Assembly: GCA_964587805.1 (NCBI GenBank)
Contig: CAZPMW010000001.1
Span: forward strand, 4,969 to 68,968
Direction: 5' to 3'
DNA length: 64,000 nucleotides
DNA from: an uncultured Elusimicrobiaceae bacterium
Lineage (GTDB): Bacteria; Elusimicrobiota; Elusimicrobia; Elusimicrobiales; UBA9959
A program made the translations under genes and the position numbers. Below the pieces are notes generated by a model that saw only the letters and a program-made list of their open reading frames with translations, made no database searches and was not told the origin of the DNA. Shown here in pieces: positions 3,813 to 50,627 of the stretch (position 1 is its first letter; every line of letters begins with the position of its first letter).

Positions 3813-3930
3813 GTAATTAACTCCTGCAGCGCGCGCGGCCCTGTTACATTTAATATAATTTGGGCGGCGGGGACAAATGATTCCGTGAGGCCCGGGAGAA
3901 CCGGCGTCCTCGCGCACGGGGAGCGATATT

Positions 3931-4893
3931 ATGAACGGCGGCTTAAAATATAAATTCATGGCCACGGTGGCTTTCATGTTCCTGTTGCCTTTTCTCGTGC
4001 TGAGCCTGCATTTCGCCCGCGGCTACAAGGAACTGGAAAAGATGGAAGTTCTCGGCCGCATGGGCCTCAGGACGAGGACGGCCGCCAATACCGCGGCCGA
4101 CCTGCTGGAGCGCAATTATAACGCTGCCGGCCTGGCGGCGTCGCCCGGTTTTATCAGCACTTCTGGAGAAGCCAGGAGGAAAATGCTGGAGAGCCGGATA
4201 AAGGATAATCCCAGCATATATTCCGGGTTCGCCGTGCTATCGGCCTCCGGAAAGGAAACTCTGAGAACAGGGCAGGCCTCTTCCAGCGGCCTTCAGGACC
4301 ATTCAAAGACAGAGTTGTTTAAAAAGACCGTCGCCGGGCTTTCTCCGGCTGGGGCGGTGGAGTACGGAGAATATACTCCGCCAGTCCTTGTCATGATAGC
4401 GCCGATTCCGGCGGGCCGCGGCGCCAGGGACGGGAGCTTTCTGCTGGCGCGCATGAGCCTGGCCTACCTCGGAGAGGCTGTGCGTATCATGGGCCGATCT
4501 TCGTACGGAGACCTAGGCCTTCTGGACGCCGGAGGCCAGCTGATCAGCGATTCTCTGGGATATTCCATAATGAAGCCCGGAATAAAGGCTCCGGCCGAAG
4601 TGCTCCGCGTGGTGAACGCCGCGGCTGCAAAGGGATTTGACGATCTTAAGACAGGAAACTTTATTAAGGGGCGCACGCAGTTTGTTTCCGTGTCCAGAGT
4701 AAGCGGCACGCGCTGGTGGATTTTCGAAACGGCGGATGCCGTCACGCCGCTGAATTACGCTTACGCTTTCTGGGTGAAACGCGTGATCCTTACAGGCGTT
4801 CTGCTCATATTCATCTTCTCCTTCATTACTTATAAGCTGGCCCTCCGCTGGCTTGCGGCCAAACCTCCGGCTGCCGGTGGCGCGGGGATCTGA
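3931..4893 (+). CDS. Membrane protein with a periplasmic Cache-like sensor region bracketed by two TM helices and no output domain
   Basis: An N-terminal TM helix (ATVAFMFLLPFLVLSL) is followed by about 250 aa of extracytoplasmic region, then a C-terminal TM helix (VILTGVLLIFIFSFITYKL) and a short Pro/Ala/Gly tail. The fold assignment rests on architecture only. The start could instead be the ATG at 3958. Confidence 0.55.
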   Translation: MNGGLKYKFMATVAFMFLLPFLVLSLHFARGYKELEKMEVLGRMGLRTRTAANTAADLLERNYNAAGLAASPGFISTSGEARRKMLESRIKDNPSIYSGFAVLSASGKETLRTGQASSSGLQDHSKTELFKKTVAGLSPAGAVEYGEYTPPVLVMIAPIPAGRGARDGSFLLARMSLAYLGEAVRIMGRSSYGDLGLLDAGGQLISDSLGYSIMKPGIKAPAEVLRVVNAAAAKGFDDLKTGNFIKGRTQFVSVSRVSGTRWWIFETADAVTPLNYAYAFWVKRVILTGVLLIFIFSFITYKLALRWLAAKPPAAGGAGI

Positions 4894-7401: not shown

Positions 7402-9003
7402 TTAGAACTGGAAGGTCAGCGTAGAGCCGCCCTGATAAGAAATGTACTCGTCCTCTTTAACGTAGCGGTGCCAGTACCGCTGTATGCCGGCGTTGAAAGT
7501 GAGGCGCAGGTTTTTAGCGGCCTCGTAGTCGGCGCTGGAGTTGAGCGTGAATAAACGGTTGTTGTCCGCCAGTGTGATCGGTGATCGCTTGCAGGCGTAG
7601 GTCAGGGTGGTGGTCCAGGTTATGCGGTGAGTGAGAGAGAAAGTGCGCTTAATGAACGGCAGCTTCAGGCCGCTGGGCAGTTGCGTGTCGGTCTTTATCA
7701 GAAGGCTCGGGGTGATGATCTCCGTGTTCTGTGTTACGATGCCAAGCCCGCCCTTTGTGATATCCTGGGCGTAGTCCACCTTCGGAGTGAAGCGGAACGT
7801 TCTGTAGTCGAACGCGCTCTGGAGCGTGGCGTCCTGGTGGCGCGAACTCCCGACCTTCATCATAAGCCGCAGATCCTTGCGGCTGGTGAGTCTGGTGTTG
7901 TAGCTCATGGCGGTATCGAAGTAGCCAAGAAGCTTGAACCGCAGGTCGCCGCCGTAGGCGTCGGAAAGATCCAGGCTTATCAGCTTGGTCTCGTTGGAAT
8001 TCTTGGAATACTTTAGATTGAGCGTGTTGTTCTGCAGCCAGCGGGTTGTATGGGTCAGATACTCAAGCTGGGAGATGGAGAAAATCAGATCCGGGAAGGT
8101 GCGGTTGACGCTTCTCGTTATGGTGCCGGTAACCTCGGACCTCTGCACGGAATTAGTGAAGTTGTTGGTTATGCTTATGGTCTTAATGGGCGTCATCGTC
8201 CCCTTTAAAGCGAAGCCCTCGAACGGCTGCCAGCGCTGTGAGGAACTTACGGTGTCGCGCAATGTGACGGAGTTCCTTTGCGCGAAATATCCTTTCGGGT
8301 TGAAGGAATCACGCAGCCAGAGCTTCCACCTTAGATCCTGGCCCTTTCCTATGTTCTGCCAGGAATCGCCGTCCTGGGTCTGGTAGTTGGAGGAGAAGAT
8401 CATCGAGCGCAGGAAGCGGTTGCCGGGCATCAGATCGTTGAGGTTCAGTGTCAGATTTACGCCGCCCTGGGCGGTGCGGTTCACTGTTTTGAGCTCCCCG
8501 ACCTCGAAGACCGCCGAGGTCGAAAGTTTAGTGACGGTTATGGCGTTCAGGTTATTGTTCTCCATAGTGGTTATGGAATAGTTCGCTCCGGGGTTCAGCC
8601 AGGAGAAGAACATGAAATTGGAGTTGAAATCCACGGTCTGCTGCATCGATTTGGGGTAGCGCTCTATCAGGTCCGGAGTGGACAGACGGTAGCGTTTTTC
8701 CTTAACCTGCTGCAGGGAATAGCCGGGGTTGAACGAGGAGCCGCGCCAGGGGGTGAAGCCCAGCTTTCCCCCGTAGATGTCGGTGCGCTCGTTCGTGTTG
8801 AAAAGGCCGGTGGCGGCTGTGGTGGTCAGTTCAACCGCGTTGTACGCAACCTTGTTCTTGGCCAAAGAGTAATTAGCGGTGATAGTGTTCGGCAGCGCGA
8901 AGAAGTTCAGCGGAGAGGTGTAGGTCATGTTGCCGGAGTAGGCGTCAATGTCATCCCTGCGCTGCAGCAGGTTATAATCAGTCCGGTTTTTAGTGTAGCT
9001 GAA
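7402..9003 (-). CDS. Continuation of the giant protein frame: C-terminal 533-codon beta-barrel-like segment
   Basis: In frame with 9004-12783 (FSYTKNRTDYNLLQRRDDIDAYSGN then MTYTSPLNFF...). Alternating hydrophobic beta-strand pattern. Ends ...GGSTLTFQF with a terminal aromatic residue, typical of OMP barrels. No RBS or promoter is evident before the internal ATG. Confidence 0.7.
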   Translation of the reverse strand, partial: FSYTKNRTDYNLLQRRDDIDAYSGNMTYTSPLNFFALPNTITANYSLAKNKVAYNAVELTTTAATGLFNTNERTDIYGGKLGFTPWRGSSFNPGYSLQQVKEKRYRLSTPDLIERYPKSMQQTVDFNSNFMFFSWLNPGANYSITTMENNNLNAITVTKLSTSAVFEVGELKTVNRTAQGGVNLTLNLNDLMPGNRFLRSMIFSSNYQTQDGDSWQNIGKGQDLRWKLWLRDSFNPKGYFAQRNSVTLRDTVSSSQRWQPFEGFALKGTMTPIKTISITNNFTNSVQRSEVTGTITRSVNRTFPDLIFSISQLEYLTHTTRWLQNNTLNLKYSKNSNETKLISLDLSDAYGGDLRFKLLGYFDTAMSYNTRLTSRKDLRLMMKVGSSRHQDATLQSAFDYRTFRFTPKVDYAQDITKGGLGIVTQNTEIITPSLLIKTDTQLPSGLKLPFIKRTFSLTHRITWTTTLTYACKRSPITLADNNRLFTLNSSADYEAAKNLRLTFNAGIQRYWHRYVKEDEYISYQGGSTLTFQF

Positions 9004-9006
9004 TCA
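9004..9006 (-). other. Single in-frame TGA separating two halves of one reading frame
   Basis: On the minus strand the sequence reads ...ccg aag ctg TGA ttc agc tac act aaa.... All 25 codons between the TGA and the next ATG (8928) are open and in the same frame. Confidence 0.9.
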
Positions 9007-12000
9007 CAGCTTCGGCAGGGAGTTTACTGAGAAAGTTCCTGCCGCCGTGCCGTCTATTCTCCGGACCTTGCCCTGCTGGATCGAGTTGACCAGATTGTTG
9101 GAGCCGGTGGCTGAAGTGTTCGGAGTGACGACCAGCTGCCTGGCGCCGGTGAAATGCAGCGGCAGGAAGGCCAGGCGCGTGATGTTCAGATAGCCAGTCT
9201 GCATCTCATTATCCTGGTTGGTTATGGCGGTCACGGGGGTCTGGAAATTCCTGTCAACATAGCGGTGCTTCCCGCCGAAGGAGGCCCATCCCGGGATTTC
9301 AAAAGAGCCCTCCACTTTCCTGGCATTTCCGACGCGCACCATGGGTTCGGCCACATATATCTCGTTTATGTAGACCGTGCCGCTGTGCACCCCGTCTGCG
9401 ACAGCCACGCCCATGGTTATCTGCGGTACCTGCCCGAGGCCGGGCGAGCCTTTTGAGGAGATGTTAACGGTGTAATTGGAGCCGTTCATCCATACATCAG
9501 GGACCCCGTCCCTGTTCAGGTCCACTTGTTCTATCGTGATCAGCTTCCAGCCGGGCGCGTTCATGGCGCTGAAGGGGATGTCCGCCCTGTAATAATTGTT
9601 ATCGTCACCGACCTGTATGAAGAAGCCGGCTCCATCGTCAGTGTTTTCAAGCTTGTTGAGCAGGAACATGAATTTTTTATGCTGCGAGATATCTATCGGC
9701 CGCAGGAACTTGCGGTAGACGCTGGCGGTGGAGCTTGAGGGGACGGCCGTATAGGTTATAGCCAGGGTTTGCTCTGAAAGGTCCTGGCTCTGCTGATCCA
9801 CCGAGCCGTAAAGCTTATTAAAAATATCTGTGGCGGCGCCGCCGGCCGAGTATATGGGCTTGTACCCGGGGTTGTCTATGTTGTTTATGGCCTGGATCTG
9901 TATGGCGCCGGTGCCTGCGGCCGCGCTCTGCTTTACGCCCCAGCTGTTGCCGACCGCAGCGATGCGCGCGAATTTTATGGTTCCGGTTTTCGGGCCGTCC
10001 TTATACTTTAGTGAGATGCGGACCTGTTTGATGGCGCTCCATTTATAGGTCTCGCCTTCGGCGATGGAGATAGGAGTGTAAAGAGTTTGAAAACCGGAAA
10101 AATCGACTCTGTCAGTTGCTGTATTGTTGGCGCCGTACGTAAAAGTAGATAAATTCACATAGCCAAAATCCCCGCCGGTGAAATCCTGCGGGTCCAGCCG
10201 CCCGTTCCTGTTGAGGTCTTCGGAGTCCAGGCGGCCGTTGCCGGCGCCATAGCTCTGCGATCCTTTGTTCCCCGCCGGCTGGTAAAGCCAGCCACCGTCC
10301 TCTGAAGGGGACAACTGGCCGTCGCAGTTTGTATCCTCGCTCTTCGGCGCGTTGCTAAGCGTTATGCCTTTCGCGCACACGAAGCCTGCTCCGCCAGTGC
10401 CGTCTGCGTCTTCATTAATCTGCCCCAGATGAATATTGAGCTGCGGGCCCTGGGTGCTGTCGCCGGAAACCACCAGCTCCAGGGCCGTCTTCTGCGAAAA
10501 GTCCAGGCCGGTGGGAGAAAGCGGGTAGACGATGGATACTTCCGAAGAGACGCTGAAGTCGTAGTTAACCGAGAGGACCTGCTGGGTGCCGTCTGTGGTT
10601 GCCGCGCTGTTTATGACCTTGGTTTTGATCTCTTCGCTGCGCCAGGTCACGGCGTTCGCGTGAGCCACGGCGTCAGGGTTGATCGCGGCGGAAGGGTTGG
10701 CCGCCATCTGCCAGAAATTAAAGTCCAGCCCGGCGGCGTCATCCTGCTTGACCCCCTCCATATTGTCTATAAGCGCGTTGCCGTTGAGGTTGGGGTTAAG
10801 GCGGGATTGCGCCACCTCGCCCCCGAGCGTGGTGCGCAGACCCAGCAGGTTCATGTTCTTGAACTGCGCGTCTCCCTCGTATACCAGCATGCTGTTGGTG
10901 AGGTCCGTGATATTCGGGACGGTGTTTGATTTTGCGCCGCCCTGGTAGAGGATCGTGCTGCCAATGGAAAAGTGGCTGCCAAGGTCATAGGAGATCCTGC
11001 CGCCGACCATGGACTGATTGCCGATGCCTCCGAAGGGCGAGACCTCGTAAACGATCTCGATCTTGGAGTCCTGTCTGATGCGCTCCGGATAATAAAAAGT
11101 AATGAACCCGGAGTCATAGTCAATGAAGTAATCCTCGTTGCGGTTCACCTTGGCCCCGTCAATGCGGATATAATCGGACTGCACTACGATGCCGGGCTCC
11201 AGCATGAAGGTTTTGAAGCGGTACGAATACTCCACACCTATAACGCGCTTTGATACCGGGGCCGCGGAGTAGAGTTGGGGATCTTCTTTGGTCGGGTCTG
11301 TGTCCAGCGCGAAAGGTTTTTCCAGCTTGAAGATGCCCTGTTCAAAATCCACTTCGATTGTGCCCGGGTAGGTCTGCTTCGGATCCAGCGTGGAGCCGAT
11401 CTCGTCCCTGTTCAGATTCTTGACTTTCAGGATGAAGCTTCCATGCCCGTCGTCGTGTATGATGTTGGTCTGTCCGATGCCGTAATATGTTTTCAATTCG
11501 CGGCTGTAGCCGACCTCTGTGTCCGTGGAGATAAAGATATCGCTCTGCGTTTTCAGCAGCACATAGGTTTCCGGACCGGTCGCTAAAGCCGTAAGGTTTG
11601 ATGTGCATGAGCTCTGATAGAGCCTGGTGCCGTTGCCGAGGCCGCCGTTCTCGAAGTCGATGATTACCACATCCTGCGGATTCAGGGCCCGGTTGAAAGT
11701 AACGAGGCCTTTGATGTAATCGATGACATAGTCCTGCCCGGGGTTCATTATCTGGAATCGCCCCGTATAGGTGCTGGTCTGCACAGCCAGGTCTTTGGCC
11801 TGGAGCTCCAGCACCGTCACCCCGTCCGCGATAACCCCGCTTTGCCGGTCTATGTAGAGGCGCTCCGTTCCCGATTTGATCGGCAGGCGGTCCAGATTGC
11901 CGAAGGTTACGTCGTAATATTTGCGCCGGAGATAACTCGTGTCCGGTATATCCACGCTCTGGAACTGCGTGTTGCCTGTAAAGTTCTTGGTTTTGGTGAC

Positions 12001-12783
12001 GCCTTTGGTTCGTGAGCCGATGATCGTGGACCTCAGGCCGCCGGTTTTAATATCGGCGCGTATGCCGAACACCTGCTTATTGTAGGAGACGAATTCCGTA
12101 GACGGCAGGGAGAGATCTATGTCGCCGAAGGAGACGTTCTGGACCACGTCGTTGGGATCGCCGGTATAGACCACGGAGATATCCTGCTTGTCCAGCTTGG
12201 TGTCGTCATAGTCCACGTTGACTGTTATCTTCTGCCCCACCTTCCCCTGCATGCGCACCTGCATCTGCTGCGTGATCTCGAACAGGCTCTGCGAGCGCGG
12301 CCGGGAAGTGAGCGTCTGCTCCAGCAGGTAGCGCTTGGAGGTGTAGCTGAGGGCTATTACCTTTCTGCCGGTCACGGACAGCGAGGTGCCTGAATCCTTA
12401 AACTCGACTTCGGGCGCGGGCGAAGCGGGAGCCTCGGAGGAGACTTCTACCTCCATAACGGGTTTTAGCCTGCTGCTATCGAAGCGCCCGCTCTCTATGC
12501 GTTCTCTGATATCGTTCCAGGCCTCCGGCGAATAGCTGGCCGGCGCCAGCGCGTCCAGATCCGGATCCGCGCCGGCCGCATCTTCTTCTTCGACCACCGA
12601 GATCCGGTCAGGGTCCGGTCTCTCCAGTAGAAGAAAGCGCGACGACTCCGACGGCGGGGCGGCCGTATAGGAGTCCGCGCCCAGAGCGGTGCCGTGCAGG
12701 GCGGTAAGGGCAAAAAAAATAATGCTAAGGTTCTTTGTCACGTTAAAAGGCGCACCAAAAGACCGGCCCGGGCCTGTGGCCAT
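9004..12783 (-). CDS. Giant predicted surface/outer-membrane protein, N-terminal 1259-codon segment (ends at an in-frame TGA)
   Basis: Signal peptide (KNLSIIFFALTALHGTALGADS). A Ca-binding-like Asp/Asn-rich stretch is present (EDTNCDGQLSPSEDGG...DSEDLNRNGRLDPQD). DY-x-IDY-x-x-G-x-(I/V)TF motifs recur. Beta-rich composition throughout. Same frame as 7402-9003. Confidence 0.75.
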   Translation of the reverse strand: MATGPGRSFGAPFNVTKNLSIIFFALTALHGTALGADSYTAAPPSESSRFLLLERPDPDRISVVEEEDAAGADPDLDALAPASYSPEAWNDIRERIESGRFDSSRLKPVMEVEVSSEAPASPAPEVEFKDSGTSLSVTGRKVIALSYTSKRYLLEQTLTSRPRSQSLFEITQQMQVRMQGKVGQKITVNVDYDDTKLDKQDISVVYTGDPNDVVQNVSFGDIDLSLPSTEFVSYNKQVFGIRADIKTGGLRSTIIGSRTKGVTKTKNFTGNTQFQSVDIPDTSYLRRKYYDVTFGNLDRLPIKSGTERLYIDRQSGVIADGVTVLELQAKDLAVQTSTYTGRFQIMNPGQDYVIDYIKGLVTFNRALNPQDVVIIDFENGGLGNGTRLYQSSCTSNLTALATGPETYVLLKTQSDIFISTDTEVGYSRELKTYYGIGQTNIIHDDGHGSFILKVKNLNRDEIGSTLDPKQTYPGTIEVDFEQGIFKLEKPFALDTDPTKEDPQLYSAAPVSKRVIGVEYSYRFKTFMLEPGIVVQSDYIRIDGAKVNRNEDYFIDYDSGFITFYYPERIRQDSKIEIVYEVSPFGGIGNQSMVGGRISYDLGSHFSIGSTILYQGGAKSNTVPNITDLTNSMLVYEGDAQFKNMNLLGLRTTLGGEVAQSRLNPNLNGNALIDNMEGVKQDDAAGLDFNFWQMAANPSAAINPDAVAHANAVTWRSEEIKTKVINSAATTDGTQQVLSVNYDFSVSSEVSIVYPLSPTGLDFSQKTALELVVSGDSTQGPQLNIHLGQINEDADGTGGAGFVCAKGITLSNAPKSEDTNCDGQLSPSEDGGWLYQPAGNKGSQSYGAGNGRLDSEDLNRNGRLDPQDFTGGDFGYVNLSTFTYGANNTATDRVDFSGFQTLYTPISIAEGETYKWSAIKQVRISLKYKDGPKTGTIKFARIAAVGNSWGVKQSAAAGTGAIQIQAINNIDNPGYKPIYSAGGAATDIFNKLYGSVDQQSQDLSEQTLAITYTAVPSSSTASVYRKFLRPIDISQHKKFMFLLNKLENTDDGAGFFIQVGDDNNYYRADIPFSAMNAPGWKLITIEQVDLNRDGVPDVWMNGSNYTVNISSKGSPGLGQVPQITMGVAVADGVHSGTVYINEIYVAEPMVRVGNARKVEGSFEIPGWASFGGKHRYVDRNFQTPVTAITNQDNEMQTGYLNITRLAFLPLHFTGARQLVVTPNTSATGSNNLVNSIQQGKVRRIDGTAAGTFSVNSLPKL

Positions 12784-12972: not shown

Positions 12973-14085
12973 ATGCGCATCCCTATAGCCCAGAAATACG
13001 TTATGCAGGTGTTTTTACGTTTCCTTGGGCTCTCTCTTTTTGTTTTTATTTCAATTTTCATAATGGTGAATTTCGTCCGCATGGTTACTGAGGGGGCCCT
13101 GAAGGGCTTTTCCTTCTACTTTCTTTTCAAGAGCGTCCTCTATCTGGTGCCCAACATAATCTCGCTCTCCCTGCCGTTTTCGTTTCTGATGGCGGTGCTG
13201 CTGAGCCTGGGCCAGCTCTCACAGGAGGGAGAGATAGTGGCGATGAGGGCCGGCGGATTTTCCTTCCCGGAAATATTATCGGCCATGTTTCAAACTTCTC
13301 TGCTGGCCTGCCTGGTTTTGCTGGCGGTCAATAACTGGTGGGGGCCAAGCGCTCTGAAGAGGTCCGCGGACTACACGCGCACCATGATAAACCGCGTTAC
13401 ACGGGTGGAGCTCAAGCCGCGCACTTTTCAGAAGGTGGCCGACTGGATCATCTACTCGGACGACGTTGACTCCGCCGCCAGCAAACTTAAAGACGTAAAG
13501 CTTCTCCGGCGGGTTAACGTCAGGAATGAGCCTGTTTTTGTCACCAAGATAAACGCGGGTGACGGGACCTACTCTGTAGTGCGAGAGCGCGGTATAGCCA
13601 TCGAGCTGCGCAGCGGGCAGTTCAGCCAGACTGATTATAAAGACCCCGGCAAGGTCATGTACGGAAGCTTTTCGTCCTACCGGACGCTTATCCCTTTCTT
13701 TTCCGATGCGGAGGGAATGCGCAAGCAGTATCCGCGCGAGATGCCGACCTCGGCCCTGCTGCGGCGCCTGTCGTGGAGCCGGCTTGAGGCGGATGTCGCG
13801 GTAAAACACCGAGTGGAGATCGCCTCGCGCCTGACCCTGGCGCTGTCTCCCCTGGTGTTTTTTCTTATAGGCGCGCCTATGGGCGTGGTGCTGGAGAAAA
13901 AAAGCCGTTCAGCCGGTTTCACGCTGAGCCTGCTGATAATTTTTTTATACTACGGTCTCAGCGTGTTCTCGATGGTGATGACGAGAAAGCATCCCTGGCT
14001 TTTCCCGTGGGCGATGTTCTCGCCGGCCTTCGCCGGTGCGGCTATAGGGCTTTTGATGTGGAAAAAACGTCTTTCTGCGCAATAG
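12973..14085 (+). CDS. lptF: LptF/LptG-family LPS export permease (YjgP/YjgQ)
   Basis: 370 aa with an N-terminal YjgP/YjgQ-type start (IAQKYVMQVFLRFLGLSLFVF). Topology is three TM helices, a periplasmic beta-jellyroll-sized loop, then three TM helices. Paired with a second family member. Confidence 0.8.
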   Translation: MRIPIAQKYVMQVFLRFLGLSLFVFISIFIMVNFVRMVTEGALKGFSFYFLFKSVLYLVPNIISLSLPFSFLMAVLLSLGQLSQEGEIVAMRAGGFSFPEILSAMFQTSLLACLVLLAVNNWWGPSALKRSADYTRTMINRVTRVELKPRTFQKVADWIIYSDDVDSAASKLKDVKLLRRVNVRNEPVFVTKINAGDGTYSVVRERGIAIELRSGQFSQTDYKDPGKVMYGSFSSYRTLIPFFSDAEGMRKQYPREMPTSALLRRLSWSRLEADVAVKHRVEIASRLTLALSPLVFFLIGAPMGVVLEKKSRSAGFTLSLLIIFLYYGLSVFSMVMTRKHPWLFPWAMFSPAFAGAAIGLLMWKKRLSAQ

Positions 14086-14095
14086 GCGAAGCTGA

Positions 14096-15187
14096 ATGAA
14101 TAAAGTTTTCTTCCGGTATATCGCTAAAGGTTTCTGGGGGCCCTTCGTCTTCGGTCTGGGCGTTTTTGTTTCGCTGCTGCTGTTTGGGAACCTTTTTGAC
14201 AAGATGAACTTTTTTATGAAAAGTTCGTCTGATATTTACACCTTTCTGGCCTATCTGCTCTACCAGACCCCCTATTTTGCCGTCAAAATGATGCCCATCG
14301 CCACGCTCCTCGCCGTCTTGTTCGCCCTGAGCGGCATGATAGCCGGGGGGGAGTGGAAGGCGGGAATGGCAGGGGGGTGGAGGCCGCTGGATATGGTCCT
14401 GCCGCTGCTGGCGTGCTCGGCCGGAGCGGCCCTGTTGCAGCTCTGCCTGCAGGAAACCGTGGCGCCTGCCTGTTATATGAAGTCCGAATACCTCTTTCAG
14501 GGTAAGATGTGGGGGCGCGCTGATTGGAAGCGGCTGGTGCGCCGGGATGTGGCATTCCTGGCGGCCCCGGATATTTTTGTAACGGCCCAGTCGTTCGACG
14601 GAGCGGAAGGGACCATGGAGCGGGTGCTTGTGAACACCTACAGCGCCGGGAAGGTGGCAACCGAGATTAATTCCGCCAGAGCGGTGTGGGACAGCGCAGG
14701 GGCCTCATGGAAATTTCTGGACGGGTTCCTGATAGAGTACGGGTCCGGATCCGGGACGCGGCCGCGAACCTCCGCTTTTAAAACCTACTCCGGCGCGCTG
14801 CGCAGCCCGCCGGAGACCATCATTCTGGAGCGTCTGGTGCCGGACGGGGTAAGTATCGCATACCTGGCAGGCCGGATCAGCCGGCTCGAGGCCGTCGGCG
14901 CTCCGGTGATAGAGGAGAAAGTCCAGCTCTACTCAAAGCTCGCCGGGCCGCTTGCGAATATAGTGCTCGCTTTAACCGGGCTGACGCTGGTCCTGCTGGT
15001 GCGGATGAACAGGATCTTCGGTTTCGGGGTGGCTCTGGCCACCGGATTCTCTTTCTGGGTGTTTATGGTTCTGGGCCAGTCGGCGGGGGAGGCGGAGATG
15101 GTTCCGCCGGCCGTAGCGGGTTTCGGCCCCGCGATAGTTTTTCTGACCGCGGCTCTGCTCGGAATGCGCAAGGCCAGAGTGTTTTGA
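14096..15187 (+). CDS. lptG: LptF/LptG-family LPS export permease (YjgP/YjgQ)
   Basis: 363 aa with the same architecture (FFRYIAKGFWGPFVFGLGVF...). Starts 10 nt after the upstream paralog. Confidence 0.75.
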   Translation: MNKVFFRYIAKGFWGPFVFGLGVFVSLLLFGNLFDKMNFFMKSSSDIYTFLAYLLYQTPYFAVKMMPIATLLAVLFALSGMIAGGEWKAGMAGGWRPLDMVLPLLACSAGAALLQLCLQETVAPACYMKSEYLFQGKMWGRADWKRLVRRDVAFLAAPDIFVTAQSFDGAEGTMERVLVNTYSAGKVATEINSARAVWDSAGASWKFLDGFLIEYGSGSGTRPRTSAFKTYSGALRSPPETIILERLVPDGVSIAYLAGRISRLEAVGAPVIEEKVQLYSKLAGPLANIVLALTGLTLVLLVRMNRIFGFGVALATGFSFWVFMVLGQSAGEAEMVPPAVAGFGPAIVFLTAALLGMRKARVF

Positions 15188-23106: not shown

Positions 23107-23895
23107 ATGAAAACAATGAAAAAAATAAAACTATTAGCGGCGCTTGTCTGCGCCGTCTGCGCGCTTAACGCGGCGGCTTTTGCCGCAAAAGATACGGATA
23201 AGGGGAAGGGCGAAAGCGTCGTTCTGCCGGACATCGAACTCATCGACATCCCCACGGCGGGCATTCTCGACTATTACGGCTTCCAGCTCAGGACCCGGGC
23301 CTATTCGGCCGGCGGCGTGCAGACCGGGCTTAATTTCGGAGTGCTGGAGCGGCTTAACCTGGGGGCTTCGATGGCCGTAGACAGGCTGATAGGTTCCGAG
23401 TCGCATATAAAAATGCGGCGGCCGGAGATACAGGTTAAATTCAGATTCTATGACGGCGGATATTACATCCCCGCGGCTGCACTGGGCTATGACGGACAGG
23501 GCTACTACTACCAGGGCAACCACGACTACCCGGAATACGGCAAATACCTGGAAAAAAGCAGAGGCCTGTATCTGGCCGGCTCCAAAGAGGTGGGAATTCC
23601 TAACTTTGTGCTGCACAGCGGATTCAATATCTCTGATTTCGACGAAAATCTGCTTTTCGGATTTATCGGCGCGAATTACACTGTGGAAAACAAGGTGTCT
23701 TTCATGCTCGAATTCGATAATCTGTTCCACGCCGGCTATCCCTCCAGGTCCAATGTCGGCACCAGGATCTACGTGACCCCCTACCTGCAGCTGGACCTGA
23801 GCATCAGGGAACTTGGCGCGCACAGGGATTTTAACCGGGACCTGAAAAGGAAAAGCGAGCGCATAGTACAGCTGAAGTATAATACGAACTTTTAA
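23107..23895 (+). CDS. Predicted outer-membrane beta-barrel protein (hypothetical)
   Basis: Signal peptide MKTMKKIKLLAALVCAVCALNAAAFA. Alternating beta-strand pattern. The C-terminus ...LKYNTNF ends in Phe. Confidence 0.65.
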   Translation: MKTMKKIKLLAALVCAVCALNAAAFAAKDTDKGKGESVVLPDIELIDIPTAGILDYYGFQLRTRAYSAGGVQTGLNFGVLERLNLGASMAVDRLIGSESHIKMRRPEIQVKFRFYDGGYYIPAAALGYDGQGYYYQGNHDYPEYGKYLEKSRGLYLAGSKEVGIPNFVLHSGFNISDFDENLLFGFIGANYTVENKVSFMLEFDNLFHAGYPSRSNVGTRIYVTPYLQLDLSIRELGAHRDFNRDLKRKSERIVQLKYNTNF

Positions 23896-34675: not shown

Positions 34676-34855
34676 AGCGATATTTTAGCATTTAGTTGCG
34701 CGGGGTCTCTGACCATTGAAATACCGGGATTTCCCTGCTATGCTATAGTTTAGGCTATTCAGCCGCATAAGTTTTTCCCTCCGTATTCGGGCCGACCGCT
34801 GATGTTTGCGGCTGAGTTCAAAGCTTTGTCCTTGCAGCAGATAGTGGAGATTTAT

Positions 34856-36436
34856 ATGAAAAACAATTCAACGCTCCCGGTCATTAAACGAACGATCTTG
34901 CGTGCAGCTCTTCCCGCGGCTATCGCGTTATTTTTAATGCCCCTGCCCGCAGTGTTTGGCGATAGCCCGTCCTCAGAAGCCGAAGGCAGTCTGCCATATG
35001 CGGATCCTATCTGTAATCTGATGGTGAACAACCTGAAGAAAGAAATGGCGGCAATAAACGCCTTCCTGGAGAACTGTCCGCCTGAGGGACAGGCAGCCGC
35101 AGATAAAGCCAAATGTGAAAAATACACCCGCAGGCTTGAGCTTACTGACGCTAACCTGCTCCGGGTAAAGGAACAGTGCGACAACGGCCTAACGCCAACT
35201 TCTCTGCCCAAAGTAGTGGATAATCCCGACGCGGCGGTTCCATGCGCTGGCTGCAAAGCGGGCAAAAAATTGCCAAAACTGCCGGTTGCCGGCAAGGTGA
35301 TGAATTTAAAGGCCGGCAATACGTCTTCGGGCGTGAAAGTGTACGATGGTGTAGCCCCGCTGGGCTCCAAAGACGCCCCCGCTATGGCCGCTGCGCCGGC
35401 TGCGGCCCAGCCGGCACGCGCGCCCGCGAGCGCAGGCGCCTCGCGGGCAGTAGCCGACGCTTCCAACACCACTGTGACCAATAGCCAGTCCAGGAGTGCA
35501 AGTTCGCCAAGGGCCCCGGTGCAGCCGGCAACCCAGCCGCGCGCGGCGACACCCGCAACCCCCGCCGACGCGAACCTCATTCCGCGCCCTGTCGTCTACT
35601 GGGCGGGGGGCACCGGCAACCTCTTTATCTTTTTCGGCAACTCCTTTGGCAACCTTTTAACCTCGGGCGGCGTGACCGGAGCTAACGCGGTGACAGCGGC
35701 GATGTCCTTTGTCCCCGTTGATCCTGCCATCTGGGATTTTGTCAATATTCCCTACCCTGCCGCCATTTTTCCGATGGCGTTTTCCATACAATTGGGTAAG
35801 ACAATGGTGATTCGAGCCATAAAATCGCGTCCCGGCCCCTTTGCCCTGGCCGGAACCAGCCAGGGCAGCATAGTCATGAATGAAGTTTACAAAGAGATAC
35901 GTTATGGCTCTTTACAATCAAGAAGGAAAGACCTGCTGGCAGGCTGCCAGTTCGGAGATCCGCTGCGCGAGCAGGGGATCCTGTTCCCGGGGTGTCCCGA
36001 CCCCGGCGTTTGGAATGATCCGGGGTCGCGCTCCGTCGGGCATGGGATCTTCCCGGCAGCCAAGCGGCTTAAGGGGACGGAGTCCTTCTGGCTGGAGTTC
36101 GCCAATGTCGGCGACCCTGTGTGCACTACAGGTGACGACGCCGTGGGCGTCTACTTTCAGCTCATAGGTAATTTTGTATTCCTGGGACAAATCGATGGCG
36201 ACAATTTTAAGAGCGCTTTGCGCAATATTACCGCTATCCCTAAAGTGATCGGCCGGTTGGTCGAGGCCGTGAAACAGATCACCTCGACCGGCTATGTGAA
36301 CCCCCATAACGGCTACAATACGATCCCCGCCTGGCCGGGGGCCAAAGAGACGTCTTCCCAGATAGCCGCGAGGTATCTAAACAACGTAGGACAGACCTAT
36401 TACAATAACGCCAGGCAGGCGGCCCTCAAAAAATAG
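34856..36436 (+). CDS. Secreted protein with a C-terminal cutinase/PE-PPE-like serine esterase domain
   Basis: Start at the ATG at 34856, after ggaga. Signal peptide (AALPAAIALFLMPLPAVFG). An N-terminal Cys-containing helical region is followed by a long Ala/Pro/Ser linker. The C-terminal domain carries the nucleophile elbow LAGTSQGS, FGDPLRE and GDPVC motifs, as in cutinases. Confidence 0.6.
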   Translation: MKNNSTLPVIKRTILRAALPAAIALFLMPLPAVFGDSPSSEAEGSLPYADPICNLMVNNLKKEMAAINAFLENCPPEGQAAADKAKCEKYTRRLELTDANLLRVKEQCDNGLTPTSLPKVVDNPDAAVPCAGCKAGKKLPKLPVAGKVMNLKAGNTSSGVKVYDGVAPLGSKDAPAMAAAPAAAQPARAPASAGASRAVADASNTTVTNSQSRSASSPRAPVQPATQPRAATPATPADANLIPRPVVYWAGGTGNLFIFFGNSFGNLLTSGGVTGANAVTAAMSFVPVDPAIWDFVNIPYPAAIFPMAFSIQLGKTMVIRAIKSRPGPFALAGTSQGSIVMNEVYKEIRYGSLQSRRKDLLAGCQFGDPLREQGILFPGCPDPGVWNDPGSRSVGHGIFPAAKRLKGTESFWLEFANVGDPVCTTGDDAVGVYFQLIGNFVFLGQIDGDNFKSALRNITAIPKVIGRLVEAVKQITSTGYVNPHNGYNTIPAWPGAKETSSQIAARYLNNVGQTYYNNARQAALKK

Positions 36437-46090: not shown

Positions 46091-46960
46091 ATGAATAAGC
46101 CGGAAACAAAAATAAGAATGGGCCTGCCCAAGGGCAGGATGAAGGACAACATATTCGAGCTGATGAACGACGCCGGGATAAAAATAAGGACCACACTGCG
46201 CGACTACCGCCCCAGCGCTTCGCTCGATAATCTGGAGATAAAGATACTGAAACCGCAGAACATAGCGGAGATGCTGCACGCCGGCTCCATTGACCTGGGT
46301 TTCACCGGGGACGACTGGGTAAGAGAGCTTAATTTTGACGTGGTGGAATTGCTGGATACGGGGTTCGACAAGGTGGACCTGGTCGCCGCCGCGCCCGCCG
46401 CGCTTCTCAAGGGCGATAAACTTCCACGCAGAAAACTCGTCATCGCGTCAGAGTATGAAAGGCTGAGCAGGGCCTGGATAAAAAAGAAAGGGATAGACGC
46501 GACATTCGTGAGGTCGTACGGCGCCACGGAGGTCTTTCCCCCGGAGGACGCCGACCTCATAATAGATATTACGGCCACAGGCTCAACGTTAAAAGCAAAT
46601 AATCTGAAGATCGTGGACACCATCTCGTCTTCCTCCACCAGGCTGTACATGAGCAGGCCGGCGTATAAGAACCCCGGGAAAAAGGAAGCCATAGACGCGC
46701 TGGTGATGCTGTTCAGGTCGGTGTTCGAAGCGCGCAAACGCGTGATACTCGAGGTCAATGTGTCGGCCGAGAAGCTGAAGTCCGTGATAAGCATCCTGCC
46801 GTGCATGCGCGAGCCCACCGTGGCCGAGCTGTACGGCGGAGCGGGCTACGCGCTTAAGGTCGCGGTGCCGCGCGAAGCCCTGCCTGTGCTGATTCCTAAG
46901 ATCAAGAAACACGGCGGTACCGATATTATCGTCACCAGGCTGGCGCATATCGTGCCGTAA
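46091..46960 (+). CDS. hisG: ATP phosphoribosyltransferase (long form)
   Basis: GLPKGRMKD...DLGFTGDDWV...ITATGSTLKAN plus a C-terminal regulatory domain. 289 aa. Confidence 0.9.
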   Translation: MNKPETKIRMGLPKGRMKDNIFELMNDAGIKIRTTLRDYRPSASLDNLEIKILKPQNIAEMLHAGSIDLGFTGDDWVRELNFDVVELLDTGFDKVDLVAAAPAALLKGDKLPRRKLVIASEYERLSRAWIKKKGIDATFVRSYGATEVFPPEDADLIIDITATGSTLKANNLKIVDTISSSSTRLYMSRPAYKNPGKKEAIDALVMLFRSVFEARKRVILEVNVSAEKLKSVISILPCMREPTVAELYGGAGYALKVAVPREALPVLIPKIKKHGGTDIIVTRLAHIVP

Positions 46961-46971
46961 CGGGACCGTTT

Positions 46972-48687
46972 ATGAGCGTAAAACCCGTACCGGGAGTTGG
47001 CAAGGTCGCGATGTACTGCGCGCCAAAACCGCGCTGTCCAGTAGAGCTCATGCTCAATCTGAACGAGGGGCCGTTGCCGCCGCCCGGGTTCTTAAAGAGG
47101 GTCTGTGGAGAGATGGACCCGGGAAATGTAAACAGGTATGTGGGAACCGAAGCCCTGGAAAAAGATATCGCGGCGAGAGCCGGCGTGTCAGCCGACAGGG
47201 TTATAGTCACCAGCGGCGGCGATGACGCCATAGAGCGGGTGATGCGGGCCGTGCTCGCGCCGGGCCGGGAAGTCATAGTGCCGGTGCCTACCTATGAGAT
47301 GGTCAATATTTACGCCGGCCTTATAGGCTGCAGCGTAATCAGGCCCGTCTGGCGGAGCGGCGCATTCCCGGTCAAAAAGATCTTATCGTCGGTCAGCGGT
47401 AAAACTTCCCTGATAGTCGCTATATCGCCCTCCAATCCCACCGGACTTACGATAAGCGCCGCAGAGCTCAAGCGATTGTCGGCGGGCGCGCCCGGGGCGC
47501 TGATCATGGTAGACCTGGCGTATGTGGATTTCGCGGATAAGGACCTGACGAAGACCGTGCTGGGCCTGCCTAATGCGGTGGCGGTCAGGACACTTTCCAA
47601 AGCTTACGGGCTGGCCGGACTGAGGGTCGGCTACGCCATAGGCCCGGAGAGGGTTATAAGCTGGCTGAGGAAGATAGGCATGCCGTACCCCGTCTCCTCC
47701 GCGTCGCTGGCGCTCGCGGCCGAGAGGCTGAAGGATAAAAACGGTGAGGTTAAAAGGTATATAGCCAGAATAAGGGAAGAGAGGAAAGAACTCAGGGCTT
47801 TGCTGCGGGGCCACGGTGTAAAGTCAGACCCGTCCCAGGGTAATTTCATACTCGCGGAATTTAAGGACGCCCGCAGGGTATGGGAAGCTTTGGCCGGACT
47901 CGGCGTCTGCGTCAGGATATTTCCGGAACATAAAGAGCTTGAGAGCTGCCTGCGCGTCAGCCTTCCGGGAGATGAGGCCGGGTTTAAGCGGCTATGCCGC
48001 GCTTTTGAAATAGTTTTGGCGCCGCAGGCGCTATTATTCGATATCGACAACACTTTAGTGGATACATCGCGGTCCTATATAAAGGCCATCGTGCGTACCG
48101 CCAGGTCGTTCGGGGCCGATATTAATCACGACGATGTCGCGGCCGCGAAGGCGAAGGGCGGGTCAAACAACGATTGGAAACTTACCCGCAGCCTGTTAAG
48201 AGCCAGGGGCATAAAAGCCGGCCTGAAGGCCGTTACGGACAGATTTGAGCAGTTATATCAGGGCACGCTGAATACCCCCGGCTTTAAAGAGGCGGAGCGG
48301 CTGATTATCGACAGGAAAATTCTAACGACGCTGGCTCGCCGCTATAAGCTTGGGCTGGTAACAGGCCGCCCCCGCAAAGATACGGAAGCTTTCCTTAAGA
48401 GGTTCGGGCTGAGTGGCCTGTTCGGCGGCGTGATTACTATGGACGACGCCAGAGAAAAGCCGGATCCCGAGCCGGTTCTGCTCTGCATGAAGCGGCTGGG
48501 CTGTTCCAAAGCGTGGTTCTTCGGAGACAGCCCGGACGATATGCAGGCGGCGAGGCGCGCCGGCGTTTTGCCCGTCGGCGTTCACTCTCCGTCCAAGCTC
48601 AGCAAGGATACGGAGCTGGCGCTGTACGGCGCCGGGGCTTCCAGGGTCCTGAAAAATATCAATGAATTAGAGGAGATCCTGCCATGA
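46972..48687 (+). CDS. hisC: Histidinol-phosphate aminotransferase fused to a C-terminal HAD-superfamily phosphatase domain
   Basis: Residues 1-350 form a class-II aminotransferase (SPSNPTG, PLP-lysine motif SKAYGLAGLRVGY). Residues ~353-571 (nt ~48028-48684) form a HAD domain with motif I FDIDNT, motif II VTGR, motif III EKPDP and motif IV GDSPDD. Confidence 0.85.
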   Translation: MSVKPVPGVGKVAMYCAPKPRCPVELMLNLNEGPLPPPGFLKRVCGEMDPGNVNRYVGTEALEKDIAARAGVSADRVIVTSGGDDAIERVMRAVLAPGREVIVPVPTYEMVNIYAGLIGCSVIRPVWRSGAFPVKKILSSVSGKTSLIVAISPSNPTGLTISAAELKRLSAGAPGALIMVDLAYVDFADKDLTKTVLGLPNAVAVRTLSKAYGLAGLRVGYAIGPERVISWLRKIGMPYPVSSASLALAAERLKDKNGEVKRYIARIREERKELRALLRGHGVKSDPSQGNFILAEFKDARRVWEALAGLGVCVRIFPEHKELESCLRVSLPGDEAGFKRLCRAFEIVLAPQALLFDIDNTLVDTSRSYIKAIVRTARSFGADINHDDVAAAKAKGGSNNDWKLTRSLLRARGIKAGLKAVTDRFEQLYQGTLNTPGFKEAERLIIDRKILTTLARRYKLGLVTGRPRKDTEAFLKRFGLSGLFGGVITMDDAREKPDPEPVLLCMKRLGCSKAWFFGDSPDDMQAARRAGVLPVGVHSPSKLSKDTELALYGAGASRVLKNINELEEILP

Positions 48688-49286
48688 GAACAGCGAAAGT
48701 GAACAGGGAGACGAAAGAGACAAAGATCCGCGTCAGCCTGAACCTGGACGGCTCCGGCAAGGCCGATATCTCCACGGGGATAGGGTTTCTCGACCACATG
48801 CTCACCGCCCTGGCGCATCACGGGCGCTTCGATCTCAAGCTGAGCTGCTCCGGGGACCTGGAGGTGGACGACCACCACACCACGGAGGACTGCGCGCTAG
48901 TGCTCGGCAAGGCCTTCAATGACGCGCTGGGCGACAAAAGAGGCGTCAGGCGCTTCGGCTGCGCCTGCGTGCCGATGGACGAGTCCCTCGCGAGGGCCGT
49001 TATCGACCTGTCCGGGCGGCCGTTCGCCGGCGTGAATCTGAAACTGAGCCGCGAATTCGTAGGAGAGACCGGCAAGGAAATCAACTCGGAGAACCTCACT
49101 CATTTTATCCGCTCTCTGGCCATGTCGGGGATGATGACTGTTCATGTCGACGTCTTAAAGGGCGACAATGACCACCATAAAGCCGAGGCGGCATTCAAGG
49201 CGCTGGCTCTGGCTTTAAATAAGGCTGTTCGCCTTATGGACGGCGCGGCCCGCTTAAAAACGCCCAGCACCAAAGGGGTGCTATAG
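48684..49286 (+). CDS. hisB: Imidazoleglycerol-phosphate dehydratase (monofunctional)
   Basis: RETKETKI...GIGFLDHMLTALAHHG...DDHHTTEDCALVLG. At 200 aa there is no N-terminal HAD domain. Confidence 0.9.
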   Translation: MRTAKVNRETKETKIRVSLNLDGSGKADISTGIGFLDHMLTALAHHGRFDLKLSCSGDLEVDDHHTTEDCALVLGKAFNDALGDKRGVRRFGCACVPMDESLARAVIDLSGRPFAGVNLKLSREFVGETGKEINSENLTHFIRSLAMSGMMTVHVDVLKGDNDHHKAEAAFKALALALNKAVRLMDGAARLKTPSTKGVL

Positions 49287-49870
49287 TGGTTACAGTAATT
49301 GAGACCGGCACCGCTAACATAGCGTCAATGCTGGCCGGGCTGTCGCGCTTGGGCGCCGAACCCAGGCTCAGCCGCGACGCCAAAGATATCGAGGAGGCCG
49401 GGCATGTGGTGCTGCCTGGCGTAGGCTCATTTAAAGCCGCAATGAGCGGGCTGGATCAGCCGCTGAGAGCCGCCATAATAAAACGTTTCAGGGAAGACAG
49501 ACCGACGCTGGCCGTGTGCCTGGGCCTGCAGCTTTTGTGCCTGGAGAGCGAAGAGGATCCGGGCTGCGCTGGTTTGGGGATCATACCGGAAAAGGTGGTG
49601 AGGTTCCCCAAAGGCTTGTGTGTGCCGCACATGGGCTGGAATACCGTGGCGCCGGAAGCCGGCTGCCGGTTCCTGACCCCGGGGTACGCGTATTTTGCCA
49701 ATTCATTTTGTCTAAGGCGCATTCCGGAAGGCTGGACGGGGGCGTATTCTGTGCATGGCGCCCCGTTCGTAGCGGCCCTGGAAAAGGGGCGTCTTTTGGC
49801 CTGCCAGCTCCACCCGGAACTTTCCGGGGCCTGGGGACTGGGGCTGATCAAAAGATGGCTGGGGAAATAA
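49286..49870 (+). CDS. hisH: Imidazole glycerol phosphate synthase, glutamine amidotransferase subunit
   Basis: GTG start. VLPGVGSF, the nucleophile region LAVCLGLQLL and the HPE triad motif are present. Confidence 0.85.
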   Translation: MVTVIETGTANIASMLAGLSRLGAEPRLSRDAKDIEEAGHVVLPGVGSFKAAMSGLDQPLRAAIIKRFREDRPTLAVCLGLQLLCLESEEDPGCAGLGIIPEKVVRFPKGLCVPHMGWNTVAPEAGCRFLTPGYAYFANSFCLRRIPEGWTGAYSVHGAPFVAALEKGRLLACQLHPELSGAWGLGLIKRWLGK

Positions 49871-49871
49871 T

Positions 49872-50627
49872 ATGCTGACGGTAAGAATAATACCCTGCCT
49901 GGACGTCAGCAACGGCCGGGTGGTAAAGGGAATAAAATTTCAGGACCTGCGGGACGCCGGTTCTCCGGCAGAACTCGCGAAGAATTACGAGAAGGACGGC
50001 GCCGATGAACTGGTTATACTTGACGTGTCCGCTACGCCAGAGGGGCGCGGCACACAGCTCGATGTGGTCAGGGCCGTCAGAGCGAATATCTCGATACCGT
50101 TATGCGTGGGCGGCGGCGTAAGAAACGGAGAGTCCGCGTTCCAGCTCCTGAACGCAGGCGCAGACAAGGTCGGCATCAACACGGCGGCCGTGGAAAACCC
50201 GGCGATCCTCGGTGAGCTGGCCGCCAGATTCGGCAGGCAATGCGTGGTGCTGGCCATAGACGCGGCGTCTAACGGCGACAACCGCTGGGAAGTGGTCACC
50301 AGGTCCGGCAAGAACAGGACCGGTCTCGACGCGGTCAAATGGGCCGAAGCCGCGGCGAAAGCCGGCGCCGGGGAAATACTGCTTACCTCCTGGGACAGGG
50401 ACGGCACAAAACAGGGCTATGATCTGCCCCTGATCTCCGCTATCTCGGGCGTAGTGGATATTCCGATCATCGCTTCGGGCGGGGCCGCCGTCCCGGAGCA
50501 TATGTCCGCCGCGGTCAAGGCGGGCGCGGACGCGGTTCTTGCGGCCTCCATCTTCCATCACGGAGAGTATACCGTGGACACTCTTAAAACAGCGCTGGCG
50601 CGCTTAGGCGTTGAGGTCAGACAATGA
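49872..50627 (+). CDS. hisF: Imidazole glycerol phosphate synthase, cyclase subunit
   Basis: RIIPCLDV..GRVVKG...GADELVILDV...GGGVR...SGGAG-type TIM-barrel motifs. Confidence 0.9.
   Translation: MLTVRIIPCLDVSNGRVVKGIKFQDLRDAGSPAELAKNYEKDGADELVILDVSATPEGRGTQLDVVRAVRANISIPLCVGGGVRNGESAFQLLNAGADKVGINTAAVENPAILGELAARFGRQCVVLAIDAASNGDNRWEVVTRSGKNRTGLDAVKWAEAAAKAGAGEILLTSWDRDGTKQGYDLPLISAISGVVDIPIIASGGAAVPEHMSAAVKAGADAVLAASIFHHGEYTVDTLKTALARLGVEVRQ

Follow-up and report, generated by a model that had tools for sequence, protein, structure and literature searches.

SprA of Flavobacterium johnsoniae (structures 6H3I, 6H3J, 8GL6 and 8GL8) and Sov of Porphyromonas gingivalis are outer membrane translocons that serve type 9 secretion (by the system abbreviated T9SS). 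The β-barrel of SprA consists of 36 strands, is capped and has a lateral opening which binds PorV or Plug (PMC10994853); according to published accounts, the T9SS is limited to Bacteroidota (PMC10994853, PMC7906972). Here we analyse the gene of a related protein on a 64,000-nt stretch ('the window') of contig CAZPMW010000001.1 from an uncultured Elusimicrobiaceae bacterium. Like SprA and Sov, its product is by prediction a secreted outer membrane protein (OMP), a giant barrel whose strands are distributed along the whole chain and interleaved with extra-membrane domains; it shows significant sequence homology to them, and SprA is the best structural match of both of its parts. Unlike them, it comes from Elusimicrobiota and has no named relatives among the Bacteroidota (FCB group), its conserved neighbour is lptFG, and no T9SS partner is encoded in the window. 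It is also shorter, with ~1,790 amino acids (aa) versus 2,403 aa in SprA.

The reading frame of this gene contains one in-frame TGA, for which two kinds of precedent exist. As in programmed read-through and selenocysteine recoding, the UGA is followed by an open and conserved frame; in contrast to these systems, the stop is not conserved, neither a stimulatory RNA nor a selenocysteine insertion sequence (SECIS) is present, no ortholog carries a cysteine, and UGA terminates genes nearby. Ordinary nonsense pseudogenes and consensus errors in metagenome-assembled genomes (MAGs) share with it the single-base change, the unshared site and the intact remainder of the gene, and nothing sets the present case apart from them save the size and the conservation of the gene which is hit. 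We conclude that the locus is a single gene for a giant outer membrane β-barrel, a distant homolog of the T9SS translocon SprA. That it carries a sporadic single-base lesion with nothing programmed about it appears highly probable to us, and this holds for a biological lesion and for an error alike.

The interrupted reading frame

All gene coordinates are window positions, the gene lying on the minus strand and being read from 12783 to 7402. Two open reading frames (ORFs), each with an ATG start, are found at 9004..12783 (1,259 aa) and 7402..8928 (508 aa), and both products are already in NCBI as separate proteins of a 69,772-bp contig (P0007, 1,259 aa, and P0121, 508 aa). Translated as a single frame, 12783 to 7402 gives 1,793 codons with a final TAA and a sole internal stop, the TGA at 9006-9004 (codon 1260), in the context ...FSVNSLPKL*FSYTKNRTDYNLL.... 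The 25 codons from there to the next ATG (8928-8926) are all open, so the translation agrees with an earlier reading made from the sequence alone, which had described one frame with one TGA. The open frame past the TGA is not a product of chance, because its 533 codons share 93% identity with the C-terminal end of the closest ortholog, and more than 100 full-length orthologs can be aligned with them over their whole length.

When the joined sequence was used for a protein search, 401 relatives were obtained. Among the best 120 of these, all are single proteins of ~1,700-2,000 aa except the window's own P0007 and one partial sequence, and more than 100 Elusimicrobiota orthologs are continuous proteins of ~1,750-1,820 aa. 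The closest relative, locus L001, shares 90% amino-acid identity and full synteny with the window. In an alignment of 121 sequences, the TGA column holds Gly in 79, Asn in 15, Ser in 13, Asp in 6 and Thr in 4, and is flanked by near-invariant P, Y and Y columns; Cys is never among the residues at the site, which are G, S, N, T, D and F. At the codon level, 80 genome loci show GGC (29), GGG (13), AGC (11), AAC (8), GGT (5), GGA (2) and others, with no stop among the 80, and 15 of 15 metagenome loci likewise have a sense codon. The ortholog alignment which the sequence-only reading had proposed for this position thus yields a sense codon, mostly for Gly, in 95 of 95 loci. L001 has GGT in a nearly identical surrounding context. 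Judged by these codons, the TGA of the window is one base away from GGA, the change being G to T at the first codon base.

The features of the locus are as follows.

7402..12783, minus strand: whole SprA-like giant outer membrane barrel gene, 1,793 codons including the TGA position, terminal TAA at 7402-7404, co-linear with orthologs of 1,750-1,820 aa
9004..9006, minus strand: in-frame TGA, codon 1260, Gly in most orthologs
9007..12783, minus strand: N part, 1,259 aa, with putative signal peptide and, by AlphaFold and Foldseek, first barrel strands, cap/insert domains and more barrel strands up to the TGA
12676..12783, minus strand: signal-peptide-like N-terminus, aa 1-36, ...LSIIFFALTALHGTALGA|D, a hydrophobic stretch with an AxA-type site; ortholog N-termini are equivalent
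11914..12417, minus strand: segment with direct sequence homology to SprA, aa 123-290 (TIGR04189 profile positions 87-254; phmmer to 6H3I_A)
10159..10419, minus strand: D/N/G-rich, putatively Ca-binding segment, aa 789-875, read from the sequence, with invariant D/N/G and Cys alignment columns
7405..9003, minus strand: C part, 533 aa, with ~22 predicted long antiparallel barrel strands (AlphaFold, Foldseek, dN/dS)
7405..7419, minus strand: C-terminal LTFQF of the OMP β-signal type; the ending is [LVIM]x[FL]QF in 119/119 orthologs examined
8926..8928, minus strand: internal ATG, codon 1286, the gene caller's start for the 508-aa ORF, in a conserved Leu/Met column
12973..15187, plus strand: divergent lptF (12973 or 13003..14085) and lptG (14096..15187), Pfam PF03739 with E values of 6e-63 and 6e-58

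Constraint was compared on the two sides of the TGA with L001 as reference. The N part has a ratio of nonsynonymous to synonymous substitution rates (dN/dS) of 0.083 at a dS of 0.66, the C part one of 0.068 at a dS of 0.52; indels are absent, and the ratios of the neighbouring genes lie between 0.06 and 0.19. Amino-acid changes of the C part were assigned to the window or to L001 with three outgroups, in counts of 13 versus 15, 14 versus 13 and 14 versus 10. The nonsynonymous count of the C part (42.5 over 1,225 sites) is below the expectation from the N-part rate. On these comparisons, the window lineage shows neither relaxed constraint nor decay past the stop, and a rough Poisson estimate would limit the neutral period since the lesion to ~0.015 substitutions per site or less. 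This leaves three possibilities: a stop of very recent origin, one that is not real, or one that is read through.

Kinship with SprA on both sides of the stop

A Pfam scan of the joined protein gave nothing significant. The NCBIfam model TIGR04189 (T9SS translocon Sov/SprA) matches the N part with E=3.3e-42 and 144 bits, below its curated cutoff of 200 bits, the best stretch being aa 123-290 against profile positions 87-254; it does not match the C part. Full-length orthologs score 124.8, 136.5, 165.3 and 174 bits with this model, all likewise below 200. Furthermore, phmmer aligns the N-terminal conserved segment with residues 159-286 of F. johnsoniae SprA (6H3I_A; 127 residues, E=8.8e-9). Similarity to SprA in sequence is local to this segment, since a full-length family profile found no match among PDB sequences at E<=1. 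In the C-terminal third, no resemblance in sequence to SprA or to a Pfam or NCBIfam model could be detected.

Structure prediction extends the relationship to the whole chain. The N block (aa 60-1259) and the C part (533 aa) were modelled as separate pieces. For the C part, AlphaFold (mean confidence score pLDDT 89.2) predicts ~22 long antiparallel strands, the first of which starts at residue 2 after the TGA. Its best PDB match in Foldseek is SprA (8GL8_A, E=1.2e-7, TM 0.54), ahead of generic barrels of 22-26 strands. In the model of aa 60-1259 (pLDDT 74.5), long strands occur at both ends and in the middle, aa 1238-1249 forming the last of them, and globular inserts lie in between. Its top four Foldseek matches are all SprA chains (8GL6_A, 8GL8_A, 6H3I_A and 6H3J_A, E 5e-51 to 1e-37), the next match following at 1e-5. 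The two models conform to a predicted SprA-type fold, that is, a giant transmembrane β-barrel with inserted cap domains. Because the N block ends in strands and the C part opens with one, the TGA falls between consecutive strands of one barrel. The models indicate that the N fragment is an incomplete barrel rather than a separable soluble domain.

The sequence-only reading had proposed a giant outer membrane gene interrupted by the TGA, a proposal which the continuous orthologs and the SprA matches of both parts bear out. Its tentative comparison with SprA/Sov proves correct as distant homology, given the TIGR04189 match (E=3e-42, below cutoff), the alignment to SprA (E=9e-9) and the first place of SprA in Foldseek for either part. 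As an equivalog, the protein falls short in score, length, taxon and known partners, and it is best described as a distant, Elusimicrobiota-specific SprA-like giant barrel.

The ends of the full-length frame are also those of a secreted barrel protein. A signal-peptide-like N-terminus with an AxA-type site and a C-terminal ...LTFQF are both present in it, whereas neither separate ORF product has both. The signal peptide was called by eye and with a hydrophobicity scan, and is hence putative. The C-terminal LTFQF, which we take to be an insertion signal for the β-barrel assembly machinery (BAM), ends in QF in 119/119 orthologs examined. With a putative signal peptide and an aromatic-ending β-signal, the full-length frame has the sequence features expected of a BAM-dependent outer membrane β-barrel. 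Both ends had been noticed in the sequence-only reading, as had a repeated DYxIDYxxGxxTF motif, of which two copies are present, at aa 351 and 551.

Some further observations concern the domains of the family. Between the barrel strands of the N block (window ~9007-12606), the inserts include a β-sandwich like those of family 11 carbohydrate-binding modules (Foldseek 6R3M_A, prob 1.0, target TM 0.60). Ortholog P0006 has a precomputed PF03425 match, and ortholog P0165 is named 'carbohydrate binding domain-containing protein'. Start calls of the closest relative appear faulty; that of P0001 is a Val within the mature region, so that this entry is without the signal peptide present in the window ORF and in other orthologs. 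The regions aa 789-875 (window 10159-10419) and aa 1088-1097 (window 9493-9522) provide a D/N/G-rich segment, in which loops resemble DxDxDG and Cys residues are conserved, and a weak match to EF-hand_5 that is below cutoff (E=0.008). The D/N/G-rich segment may bind calcium, and the DxDxDG-like loops together with the weak EF-hand_5 match suggest calcium binding in an extracellular or cap region.

Origin of the TGA

Could UGA have another meaning in this organism? In favour of this, the orthologous residue is Gly and UGA encodes Gly in genetic code 25 of the low-GC lineages SR1/Gracilibacteria; selenocysteine is the other conceivable assignment. However, lptG, tlyA and hyp107 (a small zinc-ribbon gene) end with TGA in both the window and L001, GH13 ends with TGA in the window and TAA in L001, and trmA with TAG in the window and TGA in L001. 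TGA is therefore a true terminator at ortholog ends which is exchanged with TAA and TAG, and this excludes a general reassignment including UGA=Gly. Code 25 is, on this terminator use, refuted. The GC content of the window (55-60%) is also unlike that of the code-25 lineages. As to selenocysteine, the junction has no SECIS, no ortholog has Cys at the site, a selA/selB/selC set was not seen, and no tRNA gene lies in the window. The statement of the sequence-only reading that TGA is an ordinary stop elsewhere and that recoding is unlikely is borne out by these gene ends, and we attach almost no probability to recoding of either kind.

A natural arrangement as two genes, in which a surface protein from the N part and a barrel translated on its own from the C part co-assemble, would agree with the two coding sequences (CDSs) given by gene callers and deposited as P0007 and P0121. 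It is found in no relative. When 1.84 billion representatives were searched exhaustively by phmmer with the C part, 118 matches were obtained, in which the C part occurs only as the C-terminal end of complete proteins of 1,660-1,950 aa or in fragments of all lengths. Five matches of ~550-560 aa that start near the TGA had suggested a recurrent natural split, and all of them are fragments: P0127 (L100) lies at a contig edge, P0174 and P0176 are without a start Met, P0175 is truncated at both ends, and P0140 (L098) results from a frameshift at a G5 homopolymer ~35 codons upstream (L098 ~3545). Similarly, P0139 (L099; 501 aa), which starts at the window's internal-ATG column, follows a scaffold gap of 10 N ~40 codons upstream (L099 ~2515). 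Orthologs in the form of two separate genes, the finding by which the sequence-only reading would have been overturned, were not encountered; the orthologs are continuous and the short matches are fragments.

The junction itself points in the same direction. No promoter-like or terminator-like site was found there, and the internal ATG has no Shine-Dalgarno (SD) sequence (-1.7 kcal/mol). The absence of an SD sequence and of a promoter had been claimed before; neither was indeed found, but the SD point is weak evidence, since about half of the real starts in the window are likewise without one. The 508-aa restart product, MTYTSPLNFF..., has neither a signal peptide nor a hydrophobic N-terminus. 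The 25 codons between TGA and ATG belong to conserved coding sequence and differ from L001 by 10 synonymous changes and a single nonsynonymous one, and the ATG (codon 1286) lies within a conserved column of the continuous protein which is mostly Leu in orthologs. By these sequence features, the ATG at 8926-8928 is most probably not a real start, and a natural two-gene arrangement is effectively refuted.

Functional UGA read-through, leaky or programmed, would yield a 1,259-aa form and a full-length barrel from a stop kept by selection. Its appeal lies in the open downstream frame under purifying selection, in the fact that UGA is the leakiest bacterial stop, and in the missing restart signal, owing to which any use of the C part would require read-through. 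The intact constraint downstream is nevertheless equally expected of a very young lesion, and no stop occupies the site in any of the 95 loci (80 genome and 15 metagenome). Where the frame is interrupted elsewhere in the family, both the codon and the site are different ones (a TAA at ortholog residue 1005, a TAG at 149). Neither a stimulatory structure nor a SECIS-like element was detected: the 86 nt from the TGA onward fold with a minimum free energy of -20.4 kcal/mol (z = -1.75; 9/200 shuffles fold as well), and a permissive Rfam scan at the junction returned only a chance miRNA match on the opposite strand. A small 5-bp hairpin (AGCUG/CAGCU) around the UGA is also present in L001, where the codon is Gly. 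The base after the stop is U, a non-leaky context, and the N part is predicted to be an incomplete barrel, not a separable domain.

We consider functional read-through improbable. The sequence-only reading had left three options, of which sequencing or assembly error and recent nonsense mutation fit all the evidence, while its proposal of read-through, with a soluble or surface form beside a barrel-anchored one, is unsupported: no ortholog has the stop, no recoding RNA was found and the N part holds barrel strands. A variant in which the TGA is real and maintained, with low-level read-through giving little full-length barrel and an abundant truncated periplasmic or surface fragment, seems more improbable still. 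If true, it would represent a stop-codon-controlled dosage switch for a giant outer membrane translocon in a phylum not known for T9SS.

Lesions of other kinds occur in further copies of the gene. Single in-frame stops at other positions were found in 2/80 GTDB loci, a TAA at ortholog residue 1005 (L052 ~12905) and a TAG at residue 149 (L065 ~240). The copies in L052, L065, L098 and L099 are each split into two ORFs by gene callers. In the same loci, internal stops amount to 2 per ~140,000 codons in the SprA-like gene versus 0 per ~126,000 aligned codons in its neighbours. An enrichment of nonsense alleles over the neighbours, as loss of a phage receptor might yield, is not significant with these counts. 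Candidate internal stops in the ComF-like gene and in hyp320 of other loci were true gene ends overrun by tblastn. Taken together, the lesions of the family are diverse, unrelated and sporadic, with a background of ~1e-5 per codon; over ~1,800 codons this corresponds to a chance of one or two percent per assembly.

The remaining candidates are a biological nonsense allele and an error of sequencing, consensus or assembly, caused for instance by low coverage or a minority variant, in which case the true codon would be GGA in a plain, intact gene of 1,793 codons. Several points favour an error: the TGA is one base off the Gly codon expected from orthologs, the downstream part is fully intact and constrained, the gene is conserved phylum-wide and probably important, and other metagenome assemblies of it contain clear artefacts (the 10-N gap of L099 and the G5-homopolymer frameshift of L098). 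On the other side, the consensus is clean elsewhere. Ten syntenic genes are exactly co-linear with L001 and without lesion, and 30 further window genes are intact, several with end-to-end Pfam coverage. Neither a frameshift nor another premature stop was seen among these ~40 genes, and no other interrupted gene was found in the window. So clean a window speaks against a poor consensus and tips the balance slightly towards a real variant. In addition, substitution errors seldom survive short-read consensus, and a stop would result from no more than a few percent of those that do. We regard an error as a serious possibility, though one we would not back as the leading explanation.

Two further candidates for interrupted frames were dismissed. 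A second in-frame TGA at 3886-3888, in 'hyp336', is upstream of the conserved ATG at 3931; the start of the L001 'hyp336' (L001 14160; window region 3877-3931) is over-extended. A window-wide list of same-frame ORF pairs split by one stop consists mostly of open antisense frames of GC-rich genes and is uninformative.

We give about an even chance to the reading that the premature TGA is real, a nonsense allele of very recent origin which is either fixed in the population sampled or segregates there. In this scenario, a single G to T change would have turned the Gly codon GGA into TGA. Termination at codon 1260 would release a secreted fragment of 1,259 aa which comprises a partial barrel wall and lacks the C-terminal ...TFQF insertion signal. 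BAM-dependent OMP fragments without the C-terminal signal cannot insert as barrels, and this fragment would presumably be unable to close or insert. The 508-aa downstream ORF, devoid of a signal peptide and of evident initiation signals, would not act as a functional second gene. Full-length protein would arise in traces only, by ordinary basal UGA read-through. The interruption would then be a loss-of-function or strongly hypomorphic lesion and not a mechanism.

Several points weigh against a recent nonsense allele. An exact-pattern scan of metagenome contigs across the junction found no second assembly of the population, and the exact N-part protein does not occur in the contig index. The best relatives are only 90% (L001) and 85% identical; a protein-guided metagenome scan gave relatives of at most 85% identity, a scan of GTDB representatives of at most 75%, and the 90% cluster of the N-part protein has one member. 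An error in base calling or consensus would leave sequence signatures identical to these and for this reason keeps its share of the probability. Given phylum-wide conservation (308 species representatives) and strong purifying selection, a tolerated knock-out is a priori less likely. Finally, since internal stops are not significantly commoner than in the neighbouring genes, there is no sign of selection for loss.

Family, gene neighbourhood and implications

The relatives among the best 120 come from Elusimicrobia/Elusimicrobiota MAGs and are called 'hypothetical protein' where any name is given. A GTDB scan detected them in 308 species representatives; the 80 loci kept are all from Elusimicrobiota or from unclassified 'bacterium' MAGs, and the same is true of the distant members with a source name.

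Upstream, the gene is paired divergently with lptFG, as the sequence-only reading had observed; both lpt products match PF03739. In 51 of the 60 orthologous loci whose upstream sequence extends over 2.5 kb or more, lptF is the immediate and divergent upstream neighbour, and the lptFG pairing is missing only in the most distant orthologs (~46-50% identity). A gene for a ComF-like double-zinc-ribbon/phosphoribosyltransferase protein belongs to the same locus in 59/81 cases; in the window, in L001 and in L098 it is the immediate downstream neighbour. The pairing with lptFG could hint at a role in envelope biogenesis, or it may be merely inherited synteny. According to a Pfam search, none of the T9SS partner genes (PorV, Plug, PPI, GldK/L/M/N, PorU/PorZ or substrates bearing the C-terminal domain) occurs among the ~40 genes of the 64-kb window. 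A literature search found nothing connecting SprA or T9SS with Elusimicrobia.

Elsewhere in the window, 46091-53172 is a histidine-biosynthesis cluster with apparent fusions. ORF 46972-48687 combines an aminotransferase and a HAD-hydrolase (possibly hisC-hisB-like), and ORF 50624-51904 combines His_biosynth, PRA-CH and PRA-PH (possibly hisF/A-hisIE). No Pfam model is matched (E<=1e-3 or 1e-4) by two sizeable ORFs, 34802-36436 (544 aa) and 23107-23895 (262 aa).

As regards annotation, the CDSs in the database (1,259 and 508 aa) ought to be one gene, flagged as a pseudogene or a possible sequence error. There is nothing extraordinary about the interruption, and a recoding mechanism is without support. 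The SprA-like barrel is a side result of modest interest, its role being a question independent of the TGA. It is a phylum-wide, strongly conserved and unannotated protein of ~1,790 aa with a predicted SprA fold in Elusimicrobiota, for which no T9SS is described in the literature searched, its gene usually lying head to head with the LPS-transporter genes lptFG. Should this protein act as a translocon that does without the T9SS machinery of Bacteroidota, or as a factor of envelope biogenesis, it would shed light on the origin of the SprA-type giant barrel.

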